Origin: a virus
Taxonomy: Duplodnaviria; Caudoviricetes
IMG/VR virus record: IMGVR_UViG_3300029969_000013
Coordinates: 1-64,000 of that record
Direction: 5' to 3' (one strand)
Length of the DNA: 64,000 bases
Under the pieces are notes generated by a model. The model searched no databases. It had not been told where the DNA came from and was given only the letters and a program-made list of their open reading frames with translations. Positions within the stretch are counted from its first letter, which is position 1. Each line of letters starts with the position of its first letter. This document shows, in pieces, positions 13,052-64,000 of the stretch. Position numbers and translations under genes: made by a program.

Positions 13052-13570
13052 ATGAAACGATTTATATCATGTTCTACACATAATGACATTCAATACGTAG
13101 AGGAAGATCACAAGTTATTATCTTCTATAGGATATGATGCTGTATATCAAATACGATCTAGTGTTGAACCTTTTGTAACTAAATGTTGCAATGCTATATG
13201 GGATTCATTACCTGAAGTAGGACCTATGGAGTACTATATAGATAAAGAGTTTGACACCCGGAGTAGATTATATACTAAGGGCATTGGTCTGAAAGGTATC
13301 ATCGCATACATGCCTACGCATGAAGAAGATACAAAAGGAGATCCAATCATACCTGAAGATTGCATATCTGGTAGATTATATTCAGTGATTATTCGTCCAC
13401 AAGATAAATCATTATCTACTGGAATTCCTGTCGATTGTGAGGTAGATGGATATATCATTACTTTTGAAAATTCGTATGCTGTCGGAATGTGTGATAATGA
13501 TGACATTAATCTGAAAGATGCTGTAAATAAGTTTATACTTAGATACAATGCTCATTTCAGACGTAAATAA
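13052..13570 (+). CDS. Hypothetical protein with MKRFISCS leader
   Basis: Coupled ORF. Confidence 0.7.
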   Translation: MKRFISCSTHNDIQYVEEDHKLLSSIGYDAVYQIRSSVEPFVTKCCNAIWDSLPEVGPMEYYIDKEFDTRSRLYTKGIGLKGIIAYMPTHEEDTKGDPIIPEDCISGRLYSVIIRPQDKSLSTGIPVDCEVDGYIITFENSYAVGMCDNDDINLKDAVNKFILRYNAHFRRK

Positions 13571-13590
13571 ACATTAAACAATATACATCT

Positions 13591-13636
13591 AAAGGCCTCA
13601 ATTGTTATCTCTAAGAGTTATACATTTGAGGCTTTT
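13591..13636 (+). terminator. Rho-independent terminator
   Basis: AAAGGCCTCAA...TTGAGGCTTTT inverted repeat followed by a T-run. Confidence 0.7.
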
Positions 13637-13666
13637 GTTATACATTGGAGAATAAGGAGTGATATT

Positions 13667-14014
13667 ATGAAACGAAAAATCTTAGCAGCTAGGGGATTCA
13701 AACGAGCAGCTGAAAAATATGCTGATAGTTTAAATGATAGTATTTTTGAAAATAGTAATATGTATTATGCAACTGTTGATACTAAAAGAAAACTTGTAGT
13801 AATATGTGATAAGCATACTGATAATGTTGTGACTGAAATTCGACTTAAGACTGTCCCTATTGACGTTACAAATTCTGAATATCGTCTTGCAACACCTAAA
13901 GAAATTTCAAAAGGTATTGGTTTATATGTACGAGATAAGCACAGCTCTAGTACAGAGAAATATATTCCAGAAGCCGAAGAAACAACTTCAATTGCAAATA
14001 GATACAGAAGATAA
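13667..14014 (+). CDS. Hypothetical protein with MKRKILAA leader
   Basis: AAGGAG SD. Confidence 0.7.
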   Translation: MKRKILAARGFKRAAEKYADSLNDSIFENSNMYYATVDTKRKLVVICDKHTDNVVTEIRLKTVPIDVTNSEYRLATPKEISKGIGLYVRDKHSSSTEKYIPEAEETTSIANRYRR

Positions 14015-15136: not shown

Positions 15137-18100
15137 ATGCCAGATAACAACAATGGAAACAATCCTTCAAATGCAGGCTCTGGTAGCAACCCTGATATAT
15201 TATCTTCTTTACAAGGATATATCAATAATACTAATACTAGTAGAAATAATGCTATAGCATTGTTGAAGTCTATTGACCAAACTACTAAACAAATATTGCA
15301 GTCTGGTGGTGGAATGTCTGCATCTAATGCACAGAACATGATGCCAGGCGCACGTGGTAGCAATACTTATTTTCAAAGTCGTACAAACTACAGTAGTCGT
15401 GGATTAGGTGGAGGGGGTTCTTTCAGACAGTTTACAGATAATCTGCAAAAAACTATGATGGAAGAACTCATCGGAAATGAATTCAAAAACAGCTTACGTG
15501 ATATACGAGATAAGTTAGCTCGAGATTTAGGTGTAAATGTAGAACAAGTTCCTGCTGAGCTTGGAAAAATGCTTGGTGGTAAATTAGCAGGTGCTATCAA
15601 AAATTTAAAGCCTGTAGATGAAGCAATTGGATCATTTAAGGATATTGTATCCGGTAAATTCAATGACATTAAGAATGCTTATGTACGAGGTCGTAATAAT
15701 AATTATGCAAGCACACATGATGGTGCTGCATATAATCCACAACGGTCAAGTGCAGCTACTATACGTGATGCTATTAGAACACCTTCAGGAACATCTATGT
15801 TCGGAGGAGGATCTACACCTGGTAGTAATAATAGAGCTGCTTATAATATACAAGCTCAAACCGTTATTATACGTGCGAACAGTATAATACAAGAGTCTGA
15901 AAGACCTGAAGGGTTACAAGGTAATTTATCGGATGATGCACTCTCTAGCATATTAGATTTGCTAGGAGGTGGTAGCAGTGTTGATGACATGGTAAATGGT
16001 ATTTCATCAATACTGAAAGGTAGTGCATCTTCAGCCGGTGCTGCTGGTGCTGGAGCCGCAGGTGCTGGAGCTGCAGGTGCTGGAGCTGCAGGTGCTGGAG
16101 CTGGAGCTGCCGGAGCTGCCGGTGCTGGAGCAGGAGCTGTCGGTGCGGGTATTACTGAAGCATTAGGTGCATTATCTGCAGTTGCTCCTGAAATATTACT
16201 TATCATAGGTGCAGTAGTTGCTGCTACTATGGTCTTTGACGCATTAGTAGATGCAGTCAAGCCAATGATAGAAGGTTCTAAGAAGCTGTTTAAATCGTTG
16301 TCAGATGCTGCAAATCGTTATGAAAAGAGTAGAGAAGAAGGCTTAAAAGCAGCAGAGGCTCGAATGAAAGCTGATTTTGAGACAGTAATTCGTGAGCCAT
16401 TCAAGATACTAGAAGACGCAGCTCAAAATTTATATGATGCATGGGATCAAAATGTAAGAATTATTAATGGTACACAAGGTTATAATAAAGATCAGCTATA
16501 TGACTTGATAGGAGGTTTTGCTGATCGTTTAAGAGCAGAGGGTCTTGAACGTGTTGTTAGTACTGATACAGTTACTACTAATCTTGCAAAAGTATTAGAA
16601 TCTGGATTAAGTGGTTCAGTTGCAGAAGAATTTGCATATTTAGCTACAAAACTGAATGCCGCTATTCCTACTGAAGACTTTTTCAACTATGCTAGTACAT
16701 ACAGTTCTATTGCTGCTAATGCAATTCAACAAGGTAAGTCTCAATCCGAAGCTATTTCATATGCTAATAGTCAACTGGAGTCATTTGCAAGTAACTTGTT
16801 ATATGCAAGCCGAGAAATATCAGGTGGCTTTACAACTGGTCTTAAAGATGCAAATACATTGTTCCAACAGTCTGTTCAGATTGCACAAGCAAGTAAGACT
16901 AATAATGCTACTCAGATTTCAGGTGTAATGACTGCAGTATCTGCAATAGTCGGTGCAGTTGCTCCAGATCTTGCAACGTCTATGACAGATGCTATCTATA
17001 AAGCTGCAACAGGTGGTAACAGTTCTGAAATTGTAGCGTTACGTTCGCTTGCAGGTATCAATGCATCTAATACTGAATTCTTGAAAAAGCTTTCTGAAGA
17101 CCCACAAGGCGTGTTTACTAATTTATTTGATAACTTGGGCAATATGCAGAAAATGTCCCAAGATTCATATATGGAAGTTGCAGAAGGTTTATCTAGTGTA
17201 TTTGGTGTATCTATGGATGCATTTGCTCGTGTGGATTTCAATTATCTAGCACAAGCAATATCTTCTATGAATACTTCTAATGGTTTATTAGAAGAGAATT
17301 TAGAATTACTTGCATCAGGTGAAACTACTACTAATGCTGAGCAACTTAGAATGCAGCAAATAAATGAGTACATGTGGAATGAAGGTCTTGCATATGTAAT
17401 GGATAACGCTGCTGCTAGAGAGATTCAAAAGCATATGTGGGACGAGCAAATTGCTCGTGAGCTTATGGAGTCCGAATATAGTGTAAACATTAAAGGTGCT
17501 GCACTTGAATTTTTAGAAGGTATCAGAAAAACCATTGATAACATTCTTGGTTTTTTGAATCCTTTCAAAATGTTCAGCAAACTTTCTAATTTAGTAGGTA
17601 GTATAGAAGAAGCTGGAGCACAAGATGTAGATGTTAAGCAACTACTTGAATTAGGTAAACTGGGCGGTGGCAATGCTACAGCATTATATCAGCTTACTAC
17701 TAGAAACGCAGATCTAAATCTAACTGAGAATTTAGTAAATATGATGGGTGGTGTATCTGCATACAACATTGCATCTACTAAACGAAAAGTTACTAGCGAT
17801 TTATTGTATACTGGTTGGAACAACTTATTTGATGCTACATATGGTGGACAAGGTATGAATGCATTATATGCATTAGTGTCTACTGGAGCTGGTAAAGCTG
17901 GTCAAGGTATTTCATCATTGTTCAATGGTAAGTCTGCATACAGCTGGGGAACTATAGGTAAGAGTACAGCAAGTGCATTATCATCAACTGCTAGTTTATC
18001 TGCATCTTCTACATCAACAGGGTTAGCTGCAATTTCATCTGAACAAAAGGAAGCATCAGCAACTGCACAAGCTCAAAAAGTAGCAACACAGAATTTAACC

Positions 18101-59515: not shown

Positions 59516-61333
59516 ATGATGAAACTTTCATCTATCCACATTCAAGGTATGCATAACGTTGAAGACAAAACCTACTCCCTTAGTAATATGAATTACTTTG
59601 TAGGTCCTAACGGTGCAGGAAAATCAACAGCTATGCAGGCAATTCAGCTTGCACTTCTCGGATACATTCCAGGTACAGACAAGAAGAAATCAGCTATCTT
59701 CCAACATTCAAATGGACAATTCATGTCAGTATCTTTGGTACTCGAAGATGGTAACAAGCAAATAACTATCAACCGTACTTGGAATCGTAAAGGTAAGGAT
59801 GTTGTAGCAGCTGTTAACACAGTACCAGATGATATAGATGTCGAATCTATCATTGGAGAAATCTCGCTCCCAATCCTTAACTTCAATGAATTCATCTCGA
59901 TGACATCTAACAAGTTGAAGGACTGGTTTATCAACTTCCTTCCAAACAGTGATTCTTCTATTGATTGGGACAAGAAGCTTCGCCAGGAGATTGCTGATTA
60001 TGGTAAATTACTCAGTCCAGAGTATGTAACTGAAATAATTACTTATGTTACTAATCTCAAGAGTAAAGGTCTCGATCAGATAAGAGAATTCAATGCGTTT
60101 TTAAAACAGCAGCAGTCTTTCAAGAAAACTGAACTTACAAGAGTACAAGGCACCATTCAGAGTCTCATTTTCTATGATGACTGTGACAATTCAGTAGATG
60201 TATGTACTCTCAAGGAACAGAATCGAGTAGATTCACTTATCAAAGATAACATCAATCATCAGCTTTTAAGGATTTCTAACAATAAGAAGATTGATGCTCA
60301 ACTTAGTTTGCTTACAGAAGTAGTAAGTGATTCACTTGAATCTGATAATAGATATCAGGAAAATCTCAGCAACATTGCAGCTGCTGATAAAGTAATTGCC
60401 GAATGTAATAATACAATTAGTGATTATTCAAATTCACTTGCAGCTCTCAAACAGAAGCGTGCAGATAAAGTTGAAGTAATCAACGGTGCAGGTGTATGTC
60501 CTTACAGCGGATCAGTTTGTGAATCCATTCGTAAATTATTAGATGTGTTCAAATCCGATGTTGAAAATATTGACGCTGATATTATCAGATTCAATGACGA
60601 ACGTTCAGCTAAAGAAAAAGAACGAGTTGCTGCAGATACTCAGAAGCGTATGTGTGAAAATCATAACGCTAAGATAACAACACAGTACAGCCAGTATGCA
60701 TCTCTTAAGAAGCAGTATGACTTTAGTGTTGTTGATCTTGAAGAGTCTATGCTCCAGAAAAATCTAAAGAAAACAACATCTGATATAGAAGCTAGAAATG
60801 ATCTTATTATTAAACTAGAAGCTAATAAGCAATACAACGAGCTTACACATACATTGACTGCTCAGAAGTTTCAGATTGAACAGGAGCTTGAGATTCTGAA
60901 AGCTTGGATAAAGCTTACAGATGTAAATGGTATGCAGTCTACAATCATGGAAGCTCCGTTCAATAATCTTGCTGGTAAAATGTCTGAGTATTTGAACAAA
61001 TTCTTCAACAGAGATGATCTGACAGCTGCATTTCATCTTACACAAGAAGCTAATAGTTTCAGTTTTGGAATCCGTAAAACTGATAACACATATCTGGAAT
61101 TCGACTTACTGTCTAGTGGTGAAAAATGTTTGTACACATTGTCGCTTATGCTTGGTCTGATTGAAACATCTGCTACACAGCTGCCAATTATTCTCATTGA
61201 TGACTTGCTTGACCATCTTGACCAGGAACGAATTGCATCTTGCTTTGAAACCTTGTATGATATTGATAATGTACAGGTACTTCTTGCAGGTGTACAAAAC
61301 TCACCTATCGCTGAAGGTATTATTGAGGTGTAA
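59516..61333 (+). CDS. SbcC/Rad50/SMC-like ATPase (gp46-like)
   Basis: GPNGAGKST, central coiled coil with CPYSGSVC, LSSGEK, ILIDDLLDHLD. Confidence 0.9.
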   Translation: MMKLSSIHIQGMHNVEDKTYSLSNMNYFVGPNGAGKSTAMQAIQLALLGYIPGTDKKKSAIFQHSNGQFMSVSLVLEDGNKQITINRTWNRKGKDVVAAVNTVPDDIDVESIIGEISLPILNFNEFISMTSNKLKDWFINFLPNSDSSIDWDKKLRQEIADYGKLLSPEYVTEIITYVTNLKSKGLDQIREFNAFLKQQQSFKKTELTRVQGTIQSLIFYDDCDNSVDVCTLKEQNRVDSLIKDNINHQLLRISNNKKIDAQLSLLTEVVSDSLESDNRYQENLSNIAAADKVIAECNNTISDYSNSLAALKQKRADKVEVINGAGVCPYSGSVCESIRKLLDVFKSDVENIDADIIRFNDERSAKEKERVAADTQKRMCENHNAKITTQYSQYASLKKQYDFSVVDLEESMLQKNLKKTTSDIEARNDLIIKLEANKQYNELTHTLTAQKFQIEQELEILKAWIKLTDVNGMQSTIMEAPFNNLAGKMSEYLNKFFNRDDLTAAFHLTQEANSFSFGIRKTDNTYLEFDLLSSGEKCLYTLSLMLGLIETSATQLPIILIDDLLDHLDQERIASCFETLYDIDNVQVLLAGVQNSPIAEGIIEV

Positions 61334-62281: not shown

Positions 62282-62755
62282 ATGATTAAAGAAGTTAAAA
62301 AATGTATGTATCATTCTACATTACTCAATGAGGATTTCGATACACTATTCCATGCAAAGGATGCAGAGCTCAATATACGTATACATATTCGTAAGAATAT
62401 TGAATCGTTGATAAACATAATCGACTACTACAATGAATTATGTGATGAATATAAGTCTGCAGTACATCAGGGTGATTCTGAAAGTGTCGAAAAATATGAA
62501 CAACTGCTCGACGAGACATTCAATAAGTTCTATGAATTAGGTGTCCATAAATTGCTGTTCCCTGAGAATGAAGATTCAGCAGAGGTAGAATTTGAAAAGG
62601 CAATGCGTGCATATTGTGGTGAATCAGATACCGATGATACAGCTGAATGTATGGAAGATGTTGATGTAGAACGTGCACCGTCCAGTGGCATTTTAGTTAA
62701 AGTGCATAAGGTAAGAAGGTCACATTGCGGCAATTGTAACAGATGCAAACAGTAA
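62282..62755 (+). CDS. Acidic hypothetical protein
   Basis: GGAGGA SD. Confidence 0.7.
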   Translation: MIKEVKKCMYHSTLLNEDFDTLFHAKDAELNIRIHIRKNIESLINIIDYYNELCDEYKSAVHQGDSESVEKYEQLLDETFNKFYELGVHKLLFPENEDSAEVEFEKAMRAYCGESDTDDTAECMEDVDVERAPSSGILVKVHKVRRSHCGNCNRCKQ

Positions 62756-62810
62756 ATGATTCAACATTATACATTTAACCTTGTATAATTAGCGATCGTT
62801 ATTATAAGTG

Positions 62811-62880
62811 GCCAAGATGATGCTTGGCAGGGAATCTGCAATGAGCAGAGTACTACCGTCTGTGGGTTGACGGTAGACCA
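62811..62880 (+). ncRNA. Candidate structured RNA: three hairpins ending in an 8-bp stem + ACCA
   Basis: GCCAAG/CTTGGC, TCTGC/GCAGA, CTACCGTC/GACGGTAG then ACCA; starts right after two promoter motifs. Confidence 0.45.
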
Positions 62881-62881
62881 A

Positions 62882-62971
62882 GCCGGAGTAGCCCAAAATC
62901 AGTCAGAGGTACTTGTCAGTCCTAGGCAACGTCAAGAAACAGTGTTGGTTCAAATCCAGCCTCCGGTACCA
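62882..62971 (+). ncRNA. tRNA-like RNA with extended anticodon arm centred on TAG (Leu-like)
   Basis: Acceptor GCCGGAG/CTCCGGT, GTTGG-TTCAAAT-CCAGC T arm, A-CCA end; 15-nt region in place of the 7-nt anticodon loop. Confidence 0.7.
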
Positions 62972-63096
62972 GACTCGCTTTCTTAAGATAGCTTCTTGTT
63001 CCGAGTCTGAAATAGAAAGAAGCTATAGTGTAGTAATATGCAACTATATAGCATATACGTCTTTGACAGTTGAACGGATATAATCAACTGTAATGA

Positions 63097-63173
63097 GGGC
63101 CTTTAGCTTAGTCGGTTAGAGCAGCTGACTCATAATCAGCAGGTCGCCAGTTCGAGACTGGCAAGGCTCACCA
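63097..63173 (+). tRNA. tRNA with CAT anticodon, most likely Ile2 (lysidine type)
   Basis: Full cloverleaf GGGCCTT/AAGGCTC, GCTGA-CTCATAA-TCAGC, encoded CCA; acceptor and D arm resemble Bacillota tRNA-Ile2. Confidence 0.9.
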
Positions 63174-63267
63174 GCCCGAAAGGGCAAAATTTCAATTGTT
63201 GTCATAAAGTTACTTGTTTTTAGTTCATTTTGTCTTAGAAACTTATCATGTATCTAAGACATTTTCT

Positions 63268-63334
63268 CCTTCAATAGCTTAATTAGTAAAGCAAATGTTT
63301 ATTGATGCTGGTGCAAATCCAACTTGAAGGTCCA
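63268..63334 (+). ncRNA. tRNA-like RNA with truncated anticodon arm
   Basis: Perfect acceptor CCTTCAA/TTGAAGG, D arm GCTT/AAGC, T arm GCTGG-TGCAAAT-CCAAC, T-CCA; only 14 nt between D and T arms. Confidence 0.7.
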
Positions 63335-63383
63335 GTCCTAAATAGGACAATCGTTATTAATAACAGAAAGCAACATAAAATGT

Positions 63384-63459
63384 TGGGGTATAGCCAAGTG
63401 GTAAGGCAACAGACTTTGACTCTGTCATCTCGCTGGTTCGAATCCAGCTACTCCAACCA
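63384..63459 (+). tRNA. tRNA-Gln (TTG)
   Basis: TGGGGTA/TACTCCA acceptor, ACAGA-CTTTGAC-TCTGT anticodon arm, TTCGAAT loop, CCA. Confidence 0.95.
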
Positions 63460-63559
63460 GCAGTACGAGTTGCTGCCAATGTAGGTTTTAGAGCAAATGT
63501 TGTTCCTACATAAAAATAAAACAGGTATGTGCGGCGAGACGGACCTAAACGCCGACCAT

Positions 63560-63661
63560 GTAGTGTCAGCGTAGCGAGATGATATGCATTCAACCATATG
63601 GGAATAGGTGGTTTACTCATATGGTAACCACCAGCAGGGGCAGGACCTGCACACTGCACCA
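63560..63661 (+). ncRNA. tRNA-like RNA with enlarged/duplicated central arms and non-consensus T loop
   Basis: Acceptor GTAGTGT/ACACTGC, D stem GCGT/ATGC, GCAGG-7nt-CCTGC arm, A-CCA end. Confidence 0.5.
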
Positions 63662-63702
63662 GCGTCAAAAGACGCACTTTCATAATTCTTTTCTTTTAGG
63701 CG

Positions 63703-63807
63703 AGCAGATGACCTCCAAATCAAATATCTGCAAAGTAGCTCCTTAACTGATGGCCTGAAATTCAGGCCTTAACAAGAACAAGAGGTAACGACTTATGTTC
63801 TTGACCA
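63703..63807 (+). ncRNA. Candidate structured RNA: three hairpins ending in an 8-bp stem + ACCA
   Basis: GCAGAT/ATCTGC, GGCCTGA/TCAGGCC, CAAGAACA/TGTTCTTG then ACCA. Confidence 0.4.
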
Positions 63808-63969
63808 GTCGGTTTGTCTTTTCTATTTCTTCGTTCCGACAACAAAAACCAGTAAATAGAACGTTTAGTACATACGGTAGGATATCTCATGTATTTGATA
63901 GTATTTAAAGAGGTGCACATTTTTAAATACGTCGGTACAATTAGATAGAATGAAAATGTACTTACATAT

Positions 63970-64000
63970 CTAGATGTAGCTCAGTTTGGTAGAGTGCTTG
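63970..64000 (+). tRNA. 5' part of a tRNA cut by the window end (Pro-like)
   Basis: CTAGATG-TAGCTCAGTTTGGTAGAGT: canonical D arm; C1 and the following bases resemble tRNA-Pro. Confidence 0.7.

Follow-up and report, generated by a model that had tools for sequence, protein, structure and literature searches.

A putative stable-RNA operon of a phage in which tRNAs alternate with structured RNAs with tRNA-like ends, one of them belonging to a family whose bacterial members lie beside a DS-8-like gene

The promoter-proximal portion of a non-coding RNA operon of ~5.8 kb lies at positions 62,790-64,000 of the DNA studied here, a stretch of 64,000 nt (hereafter the window) which corresponds to bases 1-64,000 of a 77,110-nt IMG/VR virus record (IMGVR_UViG_3300029969_000013; completeness estimate ~51%). 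The RNA region extends to ~68.6 kb, i.e. 4.6 kb past the window end. Our reading, to which we give a probability of about 0.6, is that this is a stable-RNA operon whose canonical tRNAs are accompanied by cargo RNAs with tRNA-like ends, that two of the latter, a 90-nt tRNA-like RNA (unit A) and a 102-nt structured RNA (unit C), are old and under selection, and that unit C mimics a defence-linked bacterial RNA. The initial annotation, made from the sequence of the window, had proposed a single set of anticodon-remodelled tRNA mimics, conserved rather than decaying as pseudogenes. Conservation was borne out for units A and C, whose helices show compensatory changes; for a third unit (unit B) the signs are suggestive only, and for the leader hairpin the proposal breaks down. 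The idea of one uniform set had to be given up: unit C belongs to a separate mobile family whose bacterial copies carry no CCA, unit B and the last hairpin followed by ACCA occur in near-identical relatives only, and some pieces are likely tRNA-Gly remnants.

No close relative was found in INPHARED, where near and distant DNA searches returned generic tRNA similarity only. Relatives were retrieved through the flanking proteins; the 157-aa and 269-aa flanking proteins used as queries gave almost no relatives in IMG/VR, and the relatives used were supplied by Logan and ENA contigs instead. We distinguish a close group (L010 and L015-L020; DNA identity 89-97%) from distant relatives (L022, L011/L012/L041, L023, L146, L025, L148 and L161) in which the identity of a flanking SMC-like protein falls from 74% down to 47%. 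A still more distant relative, with an SMC protein 41% identical, 14 tRNAs and the structured RNA ROOL, is found in the chromosome of Ruminococcus callidus ATCC 27760 and is identical over the region to a 126-kb IMG/VR contig.

The operon opens with a promoter-like motif and a leader. The motif, AATCGTTATTATAAGTG, was identical or nearly so 5' of the leader in L011, L022, L023, L025, L148 and L161, and motif and leader together were conserved across nine relatives, with three hairpins after the motif in each. Hairpin 1 was present in all of them with a wholly different sequence, while in hairpins 2 and 3 99.1% of the alignment cells were paired and 5 pairs had changed on both sides, a covariation score reached by 0 of 500 shuffles; the minimum free energy (MFE) z-score of the leader was -3.66. 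The 5' leader is conserved as a structured RNA with compensatory changes. Its 3' flank reads ACCA, ACGA or ACAA, and since the last two are found in 5 of the 9 relatives, the ACCA at 62853-62880, where the initial annotation had placed the first of three stem-plus-ACCA units, is not a CCA end, although the sequence is there as described. A second, degenerate copy of the motif (AATCGTTATTAATAAC) has a counterpart in L011, which reads AATCGTTATTGTAAGTG at the same position, so that both promoter motifs of the initial annotation are kept in relatives; similar motifs occur at four further window sites. The leader pattern, scanned against JGI metagenomes, matched 117 stretches, only two of which were not chance matches. 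Among the IMG/VR loci considered as leader carriers, L026 and L028 were rejected as chance matches, and L027 proved to hold a true leader on the L150 contig. Two further observations concern leaders elsewhere. In the R. callidus prophage (L154/L027) and in L125, the leader and a 71-nt mini-tRNA-like unit, with the anticodon arm replaced by a 4-bp stem and a 3-nt loop, stand directly before a sigma-factor-like open reading frame (ORF), outside the tRNA array. Besides, an element of ~105 nt starting GGTATAGTTGAAAGTACC and folding into two hairpins lies directly 5' of tRNA-Gly (contig 64953-65057; L009 4953-5057), and copies of it stand in front of tRNA-Gln in L148 and, in the R. callidus prophage, before two different tRNAs (76-83% identity); this is probably another class of promoter-leader, used by tRNA units.

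Unit A closes with the acceptor stem GCCGGAG/CUCCGGU, which includes a G1-U72 pair (A1-C72 in L148), followed by A73 and CCA, and its T arm is canonical (GUUGG-UUCAAAU-CCAGC), with a loop that fits the UUCRANY consensus of tRNAs. The D stem has 3 bp. The 'anticodon' arm consists here of a 6-bp stem with a 13-nt loop, AGUCCUAGGCAAC, and in all relatives of a 6-8 bp stem with a loop of 11-13 nt, as compared with 5 bp and 7 nt in canonical tRNAs. The Rfam tRNA model (RF00005) matched positions 62882-62968 with 29.6 bits, at its 29-bit threshold, and ARAGORN with default settings made no call, which places unit A outside the canonical tRNAs both by its anticodon arm and by the tRNA finders. In eight well-aligned sequences 97% of the cells were paired and 6 pairs had changed on both sides, the compensatory changes being located in the acceptor, D, anticodon-like and T stems; wholly different stems were found in L023, L148 and L161 (CUUCAUCA/UGAUGAAG, UAUGUA/UACAUA and UAUGUG/CACAUA). 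A covariance model built for the unit (R2) gave 55-115 bits at 11 unit A loci and less than 39 bits with real tRNAs, the best of which were tRNA-Leu, and unit A was still detected where the SMC-like protein beside it is only 47% identical. No strong match to R2 was obtained in 151 genomes of the host family, and a search with the acceptor pattern returned one match, by chance, in a coding region. These comparisons support the view that unit A is a conserved tRNA-like RNA with a Leu-like body and helices under selection. The absence of the D-loop GG, attributed to all three odd units by the initial annotation, holds for the phage itself, but the unit A relatives in L022, L148 and L161 have GG. 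In the clade of L011, L125 and R. callidus, the position of unit A is held by shorter forms of 61-71 nt with one arm reduced. We also considered that unit A might form kissing dimers, as every variant has a self-complementary loop core (CCUAGG, UUAUAA, CUAUAG or ACUGGU), and rejected the idea, since shuffled loops equalled it (p 0.14-0.48 each); being not significant, the cores are a lead only.

Unit C folds differently. A closing stem (P1) encloses P2, whose loop GCGAGAUGA is invariant, a pair of crossing helices (S1 and S2) and P4, whose loop GGCAGGA is invariant too; P4 abuts P1 as the T arm abuts the acceptor stem. In an alignment of ten ungapped sequences (A2), 98.9% of the cells were paired and 19 pairs had changed on both sides; with 13 sequences (A7), three of them added by the model, the values were 98.5% and 27 of 35 pairs, and every helix covaried across the 13 members. 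In most members the 3' strands of S1 (10 bp) and S2 (7 bp) adjoin without a linker, and the two helices may form a strained pseudoknot or represent two alternative states. The sequence scored 122.3 bits with the model of its own family (R1), whereas the Rfam tRNA model gave no match over 63560-63661 at E up to 10 and none of the Rfam families fitted, the best being emrB-Lactobacillus (20.3 bits against a threshold of 60.8). A block of 25 nt is invariant and identical in phages and bacteria; searched in public collections, it led to an unrelated small phage contig, three Ruminococcus metagenome-assembled genomes (MAGs) and R. callidus. In the small phage, which is SPP1-like (L149), the RNA is a stand-alone gene between head-morphogenesis genes, whereas the R. 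callidus prophage has it in its interior, at a distance of 5 kb from the SMC-like gene. The carriers found were large phages, one small SPP1-like phage and four bacterial genomes, and the family is sporadic (1 of the 151 genomes of one sample and 2 of the 121 of another). Its 3' tail is ACCA here and ACUA or AAGG elsewhere, and the bacterial copies end in a U-run terminator. Unit C therefore falls in a mobile RNA family of its own and is not a tRNA derivative.

The surroundings of the bacterial copies suggested a possible target. The tail-to-tail neighbour of the three MAG copies is an ORF of 945 aa that combines a metallophosphatase at its N terminus with a STAND NTPase domain (Pfam Metallophos and nSTAND). 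This position beside a metallophosphatase and STAND/NACHT ORF was found in L151, L152, L153 and L166, and the phage copies have no such neighbour. The 945-aa ORF matched NCBIfam DS8_antiphage (NF053861) with E 8.5e-80 and 268.7 bits, for a curated cut-off of 790, and PADLOC PDC-S60 with 4e-12; by these profiles it is a DS-8 homologue, not an equivalog. DS-8 is a single-protein anti-phage system with metallophosphatase and NACHT domains, validated experimentally in 2026 (PMC13092281). In a genus sample of 121 genomes, RNA and ORF occurred in the same two and neither was present in the other 119. An order sample of 401 genomes yielded one further ORF homologue, just 29% identical, and this too has a unit C RNA at its 3' end, tail-to-tail, which scored 67.2 bits and showed new compensatory changes in all helices. 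We take this co-occurrence as a small but consistent sign that the bacterial RNA and the DS-8-like ORF may form a two-part module, and what evidence there is on a target of unit C points to the DS-8-like NACHT-metallophosphatase gene linked to its bacterial relatives, and not to the synthetases, T-box riboswitches, RelA or anticodon nucleases that the initial annotation had put forward as possible targets.

A scan with shuffled controls looked for tRNA-like ends, defined as a 7-bp closing stem with a 5-bp/7-nt hairpin beside it and NCCA. We found 12 matches in the 6-kb RNA region, compared to 0.55 in shuffles (maximum 4), and units A, B and C were among them, which bears out the three CCA-ending cloverleaf-like units of the initial annotation. 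The two canonical tRNAs it had listed, and the third at the window edge, were confirmed by ARAGORN and Rfam as Met, Gln and Pro, and units A and B matched the Rfam tRNA model; the covariation across related phages that it had called for was seen in the leader, unit A and unit C. As for the stem-plus-ACCA units, the ones at 62853-62880 and 63773-63807 are present and the third is part of unit C. G-initiated hairpins resembling that behind unit A (62972-63007) come after the CCA of tRNA-Met, unit B, tRNA-Gln and unit C, and the one behind unit A was retained, with altered sequence, in L022, L146 and L161. When four wastewater RNA-library runs were compared with the window, two metatranscriptome contigs matched, at 63677-63836 and 63100-63249; they define no ends and may reflect DNA carry-over. 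The features are listed in Table 1.

Table 1. Features of the promoter-proximal part of the RNA operon (window coordinates).
Feature	Position	Strand	Basis or remark
Promoter-like motif AATCGTTATTATAAGTG	62794..62810	+	operon start; conserved in relatives
5' leader, three hairpins (62811-62828, 62835-62849, 62853-62876)	62807..62881	+	comparative alignment
Unit A, 90-nt tRNA-like RNA	62882..62971	+	Rfam tRNA 29.6 bits; covariation
Hairpin GACUCG...CGAGUC, immediately 3' of unit A CCA	62972..63007	+	kept in relatives
tRNA-Met (CAT), canonical	63097..63173	+	ARAGORN; Rfam 67.5 bits
Unit B, 67-nt tRNA-like RNA	63268..63334	+	Rfam tRNA 37.4 bits
Second promoter-like motif copy, degenerate, AATCGTTATTAATAAC	63349..63364	+	precedes tRNA-Gln; counterpart in L011
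tRNA-Gln (TTG), canonical	63384..63459	+	ARAGORN; Rfam 65.2 bits
Unit C, 102-nt structured RNA, ACCA end here	63560..63661	+	covariation; no Rfam family
Hairpin GCAGAU...AUCUGC, without CCA	63704..63731	+	likely tRNA-Gly remnant
Hairpin + ACCA	63773..63807	+	sequence; close group only
tRNA-Pro (TGG), 5' part; 3' end at contig 64046	63970..64000	+	ARAGORN; Rfam 68.6 bits

The remaining cargo appears younger. Unit B has a mini-hairpin of 3 bp and 4 nt instead of an anticodon arm, a T loop UGCAAAU (G55) and a U73-CCA end; with just 14 nt between the D and T arms it has no tRNA anticodon arm, and its match to the Rfam tRNA model (63268-63331, 37.4 bits) aligned 7 nt where 15 were expected. Compared with L011 it is a clean 67-nt presence/absence. 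Six of its sites vary and none of the changes breaks a pair (estimated p roughly 0.03-0.04), a pattern that favours a kept structure but is suggestive only. Units B, D and E, most spacers and the hairpin with ACCA at 63773-63807 turned up in the close group only, and that hairpin had an MFE z-score of -1.5 and no comparative support. The hairpin at 63704-63731 shares its acceptor strands with tRNA-Gly (65058-65132) and with a microhelix at 65232-65256, and L011 and L041 have GCAGAUG units in truncated form; these, like the two hairpins here, look like deletion remnants of tRNA-Gly. Even phages 98% identical differ in their arrays by whole-cassette insertions and deletions. One of these phages (L010 1-282) has the first ~210 codons of the 269-aa ORF, which lies between tRNA-Pro and tRNA-Gly (contig 64123-64932) and belongs to no known family, replaced by a tRNA-Arg(CCT), and also carries an extra tRNA-Gly cassette at 66196, in line with cassette-like insertions and deletions shaping the array.

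Several other odd elements were noticed in this array and its homologues. Two of them, confined to the close group, are a 148-nt unit (contig 65471-65618) with acceptor GUCAGAA/UUCUGAC, T loop UGCAAUU and an ACCA end, and a 73-nt unit (contig 65869-65941) without D arm, with a 9-nt anticodon loop, T loop UUUGAUU and an ACCA end. A T-loop variant with G55 (UGCAAAU, UGCAAUU or UGCAAGU) is found in several odd units of the clade, and never in its canonical tRNAs (window 63268-63334; contig 65471-65618; L011 13421-13481; L012 14715-14801). In L148, an ORF-free stretch of ~670 nt between tRNA-Lys and tRNA-Gln (13296-13965) shares blocks with the region after tRNA-Gly here (contig 65133-65470), one block of 80 nt being 81% identical; it is distinct from ROOL, which in that phage lies separately at 15306-15870, and may be another large structured RNA.

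Taken together, these data are consistent with the following scheme. The conserved phage promoter would drive one long transcript of stable RNAs, in which the three-hairpin leader precedes a mixed series of canonical tRNAs and further small structured RNAs. The latter end in tRNA fashion, with a 7-bp closing stem on a 5-bp/7-nt hairpin, N73 and usually CCA; because of such ends, host RNase P and the 3' tRNA-maturation enzymes should be able to cut each RNA out, and the hairpins directly after the CCA ends might serve processing or stability. CCA-adding enzyme, RNA ligase and RtcB were not found in the 77-kb record, which is ~51% complete. Unit A would act as a non-decoding tRNA-Leu-like decoy whose acceptor end, A73-CCA, could still be recognised by tRNA-binding enzymes, the phage unit C would imitate the DS-8-linked bacterial RNA and so blunt or mislead the defence, and unit B, the late hairpin with ACCA and the Gly-type hairpins would be young, lineage-specific derivatives of tRNA genes. 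A bolder version, possible though doubtful, is that unit C is a phage copy of a hitherto undescribed non-coding RNA that partners DS-8-like genes in bacteria, perhaps as regulator, antidote or sensor bait, and that, once expressed from the tRNA-style operon and excised by host tRNA-processing enzymes, it disables or misleads the defence, with unit A as a second, tRNA-Leu-derived decoy for a tRNA-binding host factor.

Several points weigh against the stable-RNA operon as we read it. When this phage is compared with L015, the odd units diverge by 0-12%, tRNAs by 2-14%, spacers by 3-17% and third codon positions by 10-32%, too flat a profile to split classes; as spacers are about as conserved as units within the close group, conservation there says little by itself. 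Neither the CCA of unit C nor the 'ACCA' of the leader is conserved, so that tRNA-type 3' processing cannot be universal for the family, and RNase P-type excision of the cargo is predicted from end geometry. The 61-71 nt forms at the position of unit A in the L011 clade could be decay. On the side of the defence gene, the match to DS-8 is below the NCBIfam curated cut-off (268.7 and 790 bits), the link comes from four bacterial genomes, three of them closely related, and DS-8 itself was reported without an RNA partner (PMC13092281).

The same observations were weighed under other explanations. If the odd units were functionless tRNA pseudogenes or deletion remnants of a fast-turnover array, one would readily understand the whole-cassette differences between arrays of 98%-identical phages, a tRNA-Ser that is intact in L011 and broken in L012, the graded series of truncated GCAGAU(G)-type units (82, 58, 28 and 26 nt) and the confinement of units B, D, E and the late hairpin to the close group. 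We nevertheless consider this unlikely, since the helices of A, C and the leader were preserved through many compensatory changes and these three persist at 47-53% identity of the flanking proteins, and since unit C has some relatives that never belonged to any array. In phage L161 the order is promoter, leader, unit A, unit C and ORF, with no canonical tRNA in 17.8 kb, which indicates that A and C are not by-products of array decay. L161 also offers no tRNAs to process, and this bears on the notion that the units are cis-acting elements of pre-tRNAs (RNase P or RNase E entry sites, 5' stabilisers or 3' exonuclease blocks) rather than trans-acting RNAs. A 5'-terminal hairpin does open the leader in every relative, a hairpin kept with altered sequence in relatives stands directly behind most CCA ends, and the second, ~105-nt leader-like element recurs just 5' of different tRNAs in several phages, all as expected of such elements; yet a five-helix, 102-nt unit C with ~50 invariant nucleotides exceeds the needs of punctuation and in bacteria and the small phage stands by itself, as a gene that has a terminator of its own, and we regard the cis-acting role as quite improbable.

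For unit A, a working tRNA with an unusual anticodon loop, suppressing or frameshifting, has to be considered as well, given that ARAGORN calls some relatives tRNA-Thr(AGU) or tRNA-Tyr(AUA) and that CUA occupies the loop centre in this phage. With loops of 11-13 nt, no triplet fixed in place among CCUAGG, UUAUAA, ACUGGU and CUAUAG, and phage ORFs open under the standard code, such a role is very hard to credit. Equally slight is the chance that unit C was kept as a recombination or attachment site of phages and islands and not as an RNA: compensatory changes in all helices mean selection on RNA structure, the R. callidus prophage carries its copy in the interior (5 kb away from the SMC-like gene), and genomes without the linked ORF are also without the RNA, even if an identical 25-nt block shared by phages and bacteria, and an integrase 1.3 kb from one bacterial copy, are what such a site would predict.

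The phage itself could be placed in part. The last ORF before the operon occupies 62282-62755 and the next credible one begins at 64123, leaving 62756-64122 ORF-free; the flanking genes encode an SMC-like ATPase, a phosphoribosyltransferase, an S1-domain protein, a dNMP kinase, a sigma factor, NrdD and an NAD-dependent ligase, and beyond the window the RNA region continues with tRNA-Gly, two tRNA-Leu and further odd units. Matching DNA came from sheep, mouse and rat gut runs and from wastewater runs. With the chromosomal relative in R. callidus indicating a host of Ruminococcus type, this points to a large gut phage with a Ruminococcus-type host. The SMC-like ATPase (window 59516-61333) matched the PADLOC models of LmuB (Lamassu) and DndD/PbeC (E 1e-23 to 1e-12) and is kept in very many gut phage contigs (494 proteins at E <=1e-20). 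The ORF at 62282-62755, of 157 aa and cysteine-rich, is only 60-62% identical in phages whose neighbouring DNA is ~95% identical, marking a local divergence or recombination hot spot. Selfish elements are abundant in the clade, including an IS605-type TnpB, an intein within the UvrD-like helicase and, splitting nrdD, an ORF for a NUMOD4 homing endonuclease (L022 3723-4898; L148 4833-7286 and 18462-18971).

What is new here is the presence, in a phage tRNA operon, of small tRNA-ended RNAs supported by covariation, one of which falls in a new family tied to a defence gene. Should the coupling be functional, an RNA would be part of the DS-8-like systems of Oscillospirales, and the phage countermeasure would be an RNA mimic produced through tRNA processing. 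R. callidus ATCC 27760, with its related prophage carrying unit C, ROOL and 14 tRNAs, provides a cultured handle.

Among known systems, phage T4 has RNAC and RNAD, whose ends are tRNA-like and which RNase P matures. They resemble the units described here in being stable non-tRNA RNAs within a phage tRNA region, but we saw no sequence relation, the host phylum is another, and here the folds are shown by covariation and bacterial relatives of one unit lie next to a defence gene. RNAC and RNAD (species 1 and 2) are co-transcribed with the tRNAs as small stable RNAs of unassigned role (PMC3014915), and ROOL and GOLLD are structured non-coding RNAs of phage tRNA islands (PMC5737381; 10.1101/2024.12.08.627333). 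The latter measure ~580-800 nt, unlike units A and C, with 90-102 nt and tRNA-like closing ends. ROOL (RF03087) sits in the homologous arrays of L148 and L150/L154, with model scores of 280-285 bits, and a covariance search of the ~51% complete 77-kb record gave no match to it. To our knowledge, none of RNAC, RNAD, ROOL and GOLLD has an assigned function. YrlA, a Y RNA-like RNA, and the tRNA-like domain of transfer-messenger RNA (tmRNA) are similar in joining an acceptor/T-arm mimic to a non-tRNA module; in the window there was no Rfam match to Y RNA or tmRNA, no tmRNA call by ARAGORN and no tag ORF. Non-proteinogenic tRNAs such as the staphylococcal cell-wall tRNA-Gly use a tRNA body for a non-decoding role and are a possible model for unit A, although they have the normal 7-nt anticodon loop that unit A lacks. 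Finally, phage pseudo-ToxI and RNA anti-CRISPRs are phage copies of a defence system's own RNA. Unit C has no repeat array and its candidate partner is a DS-8-like NACHT-metallophosphatase and not ToxN or Cas, but the logic that we propose for it is the same, that of a look-alike of a host defence RNA.

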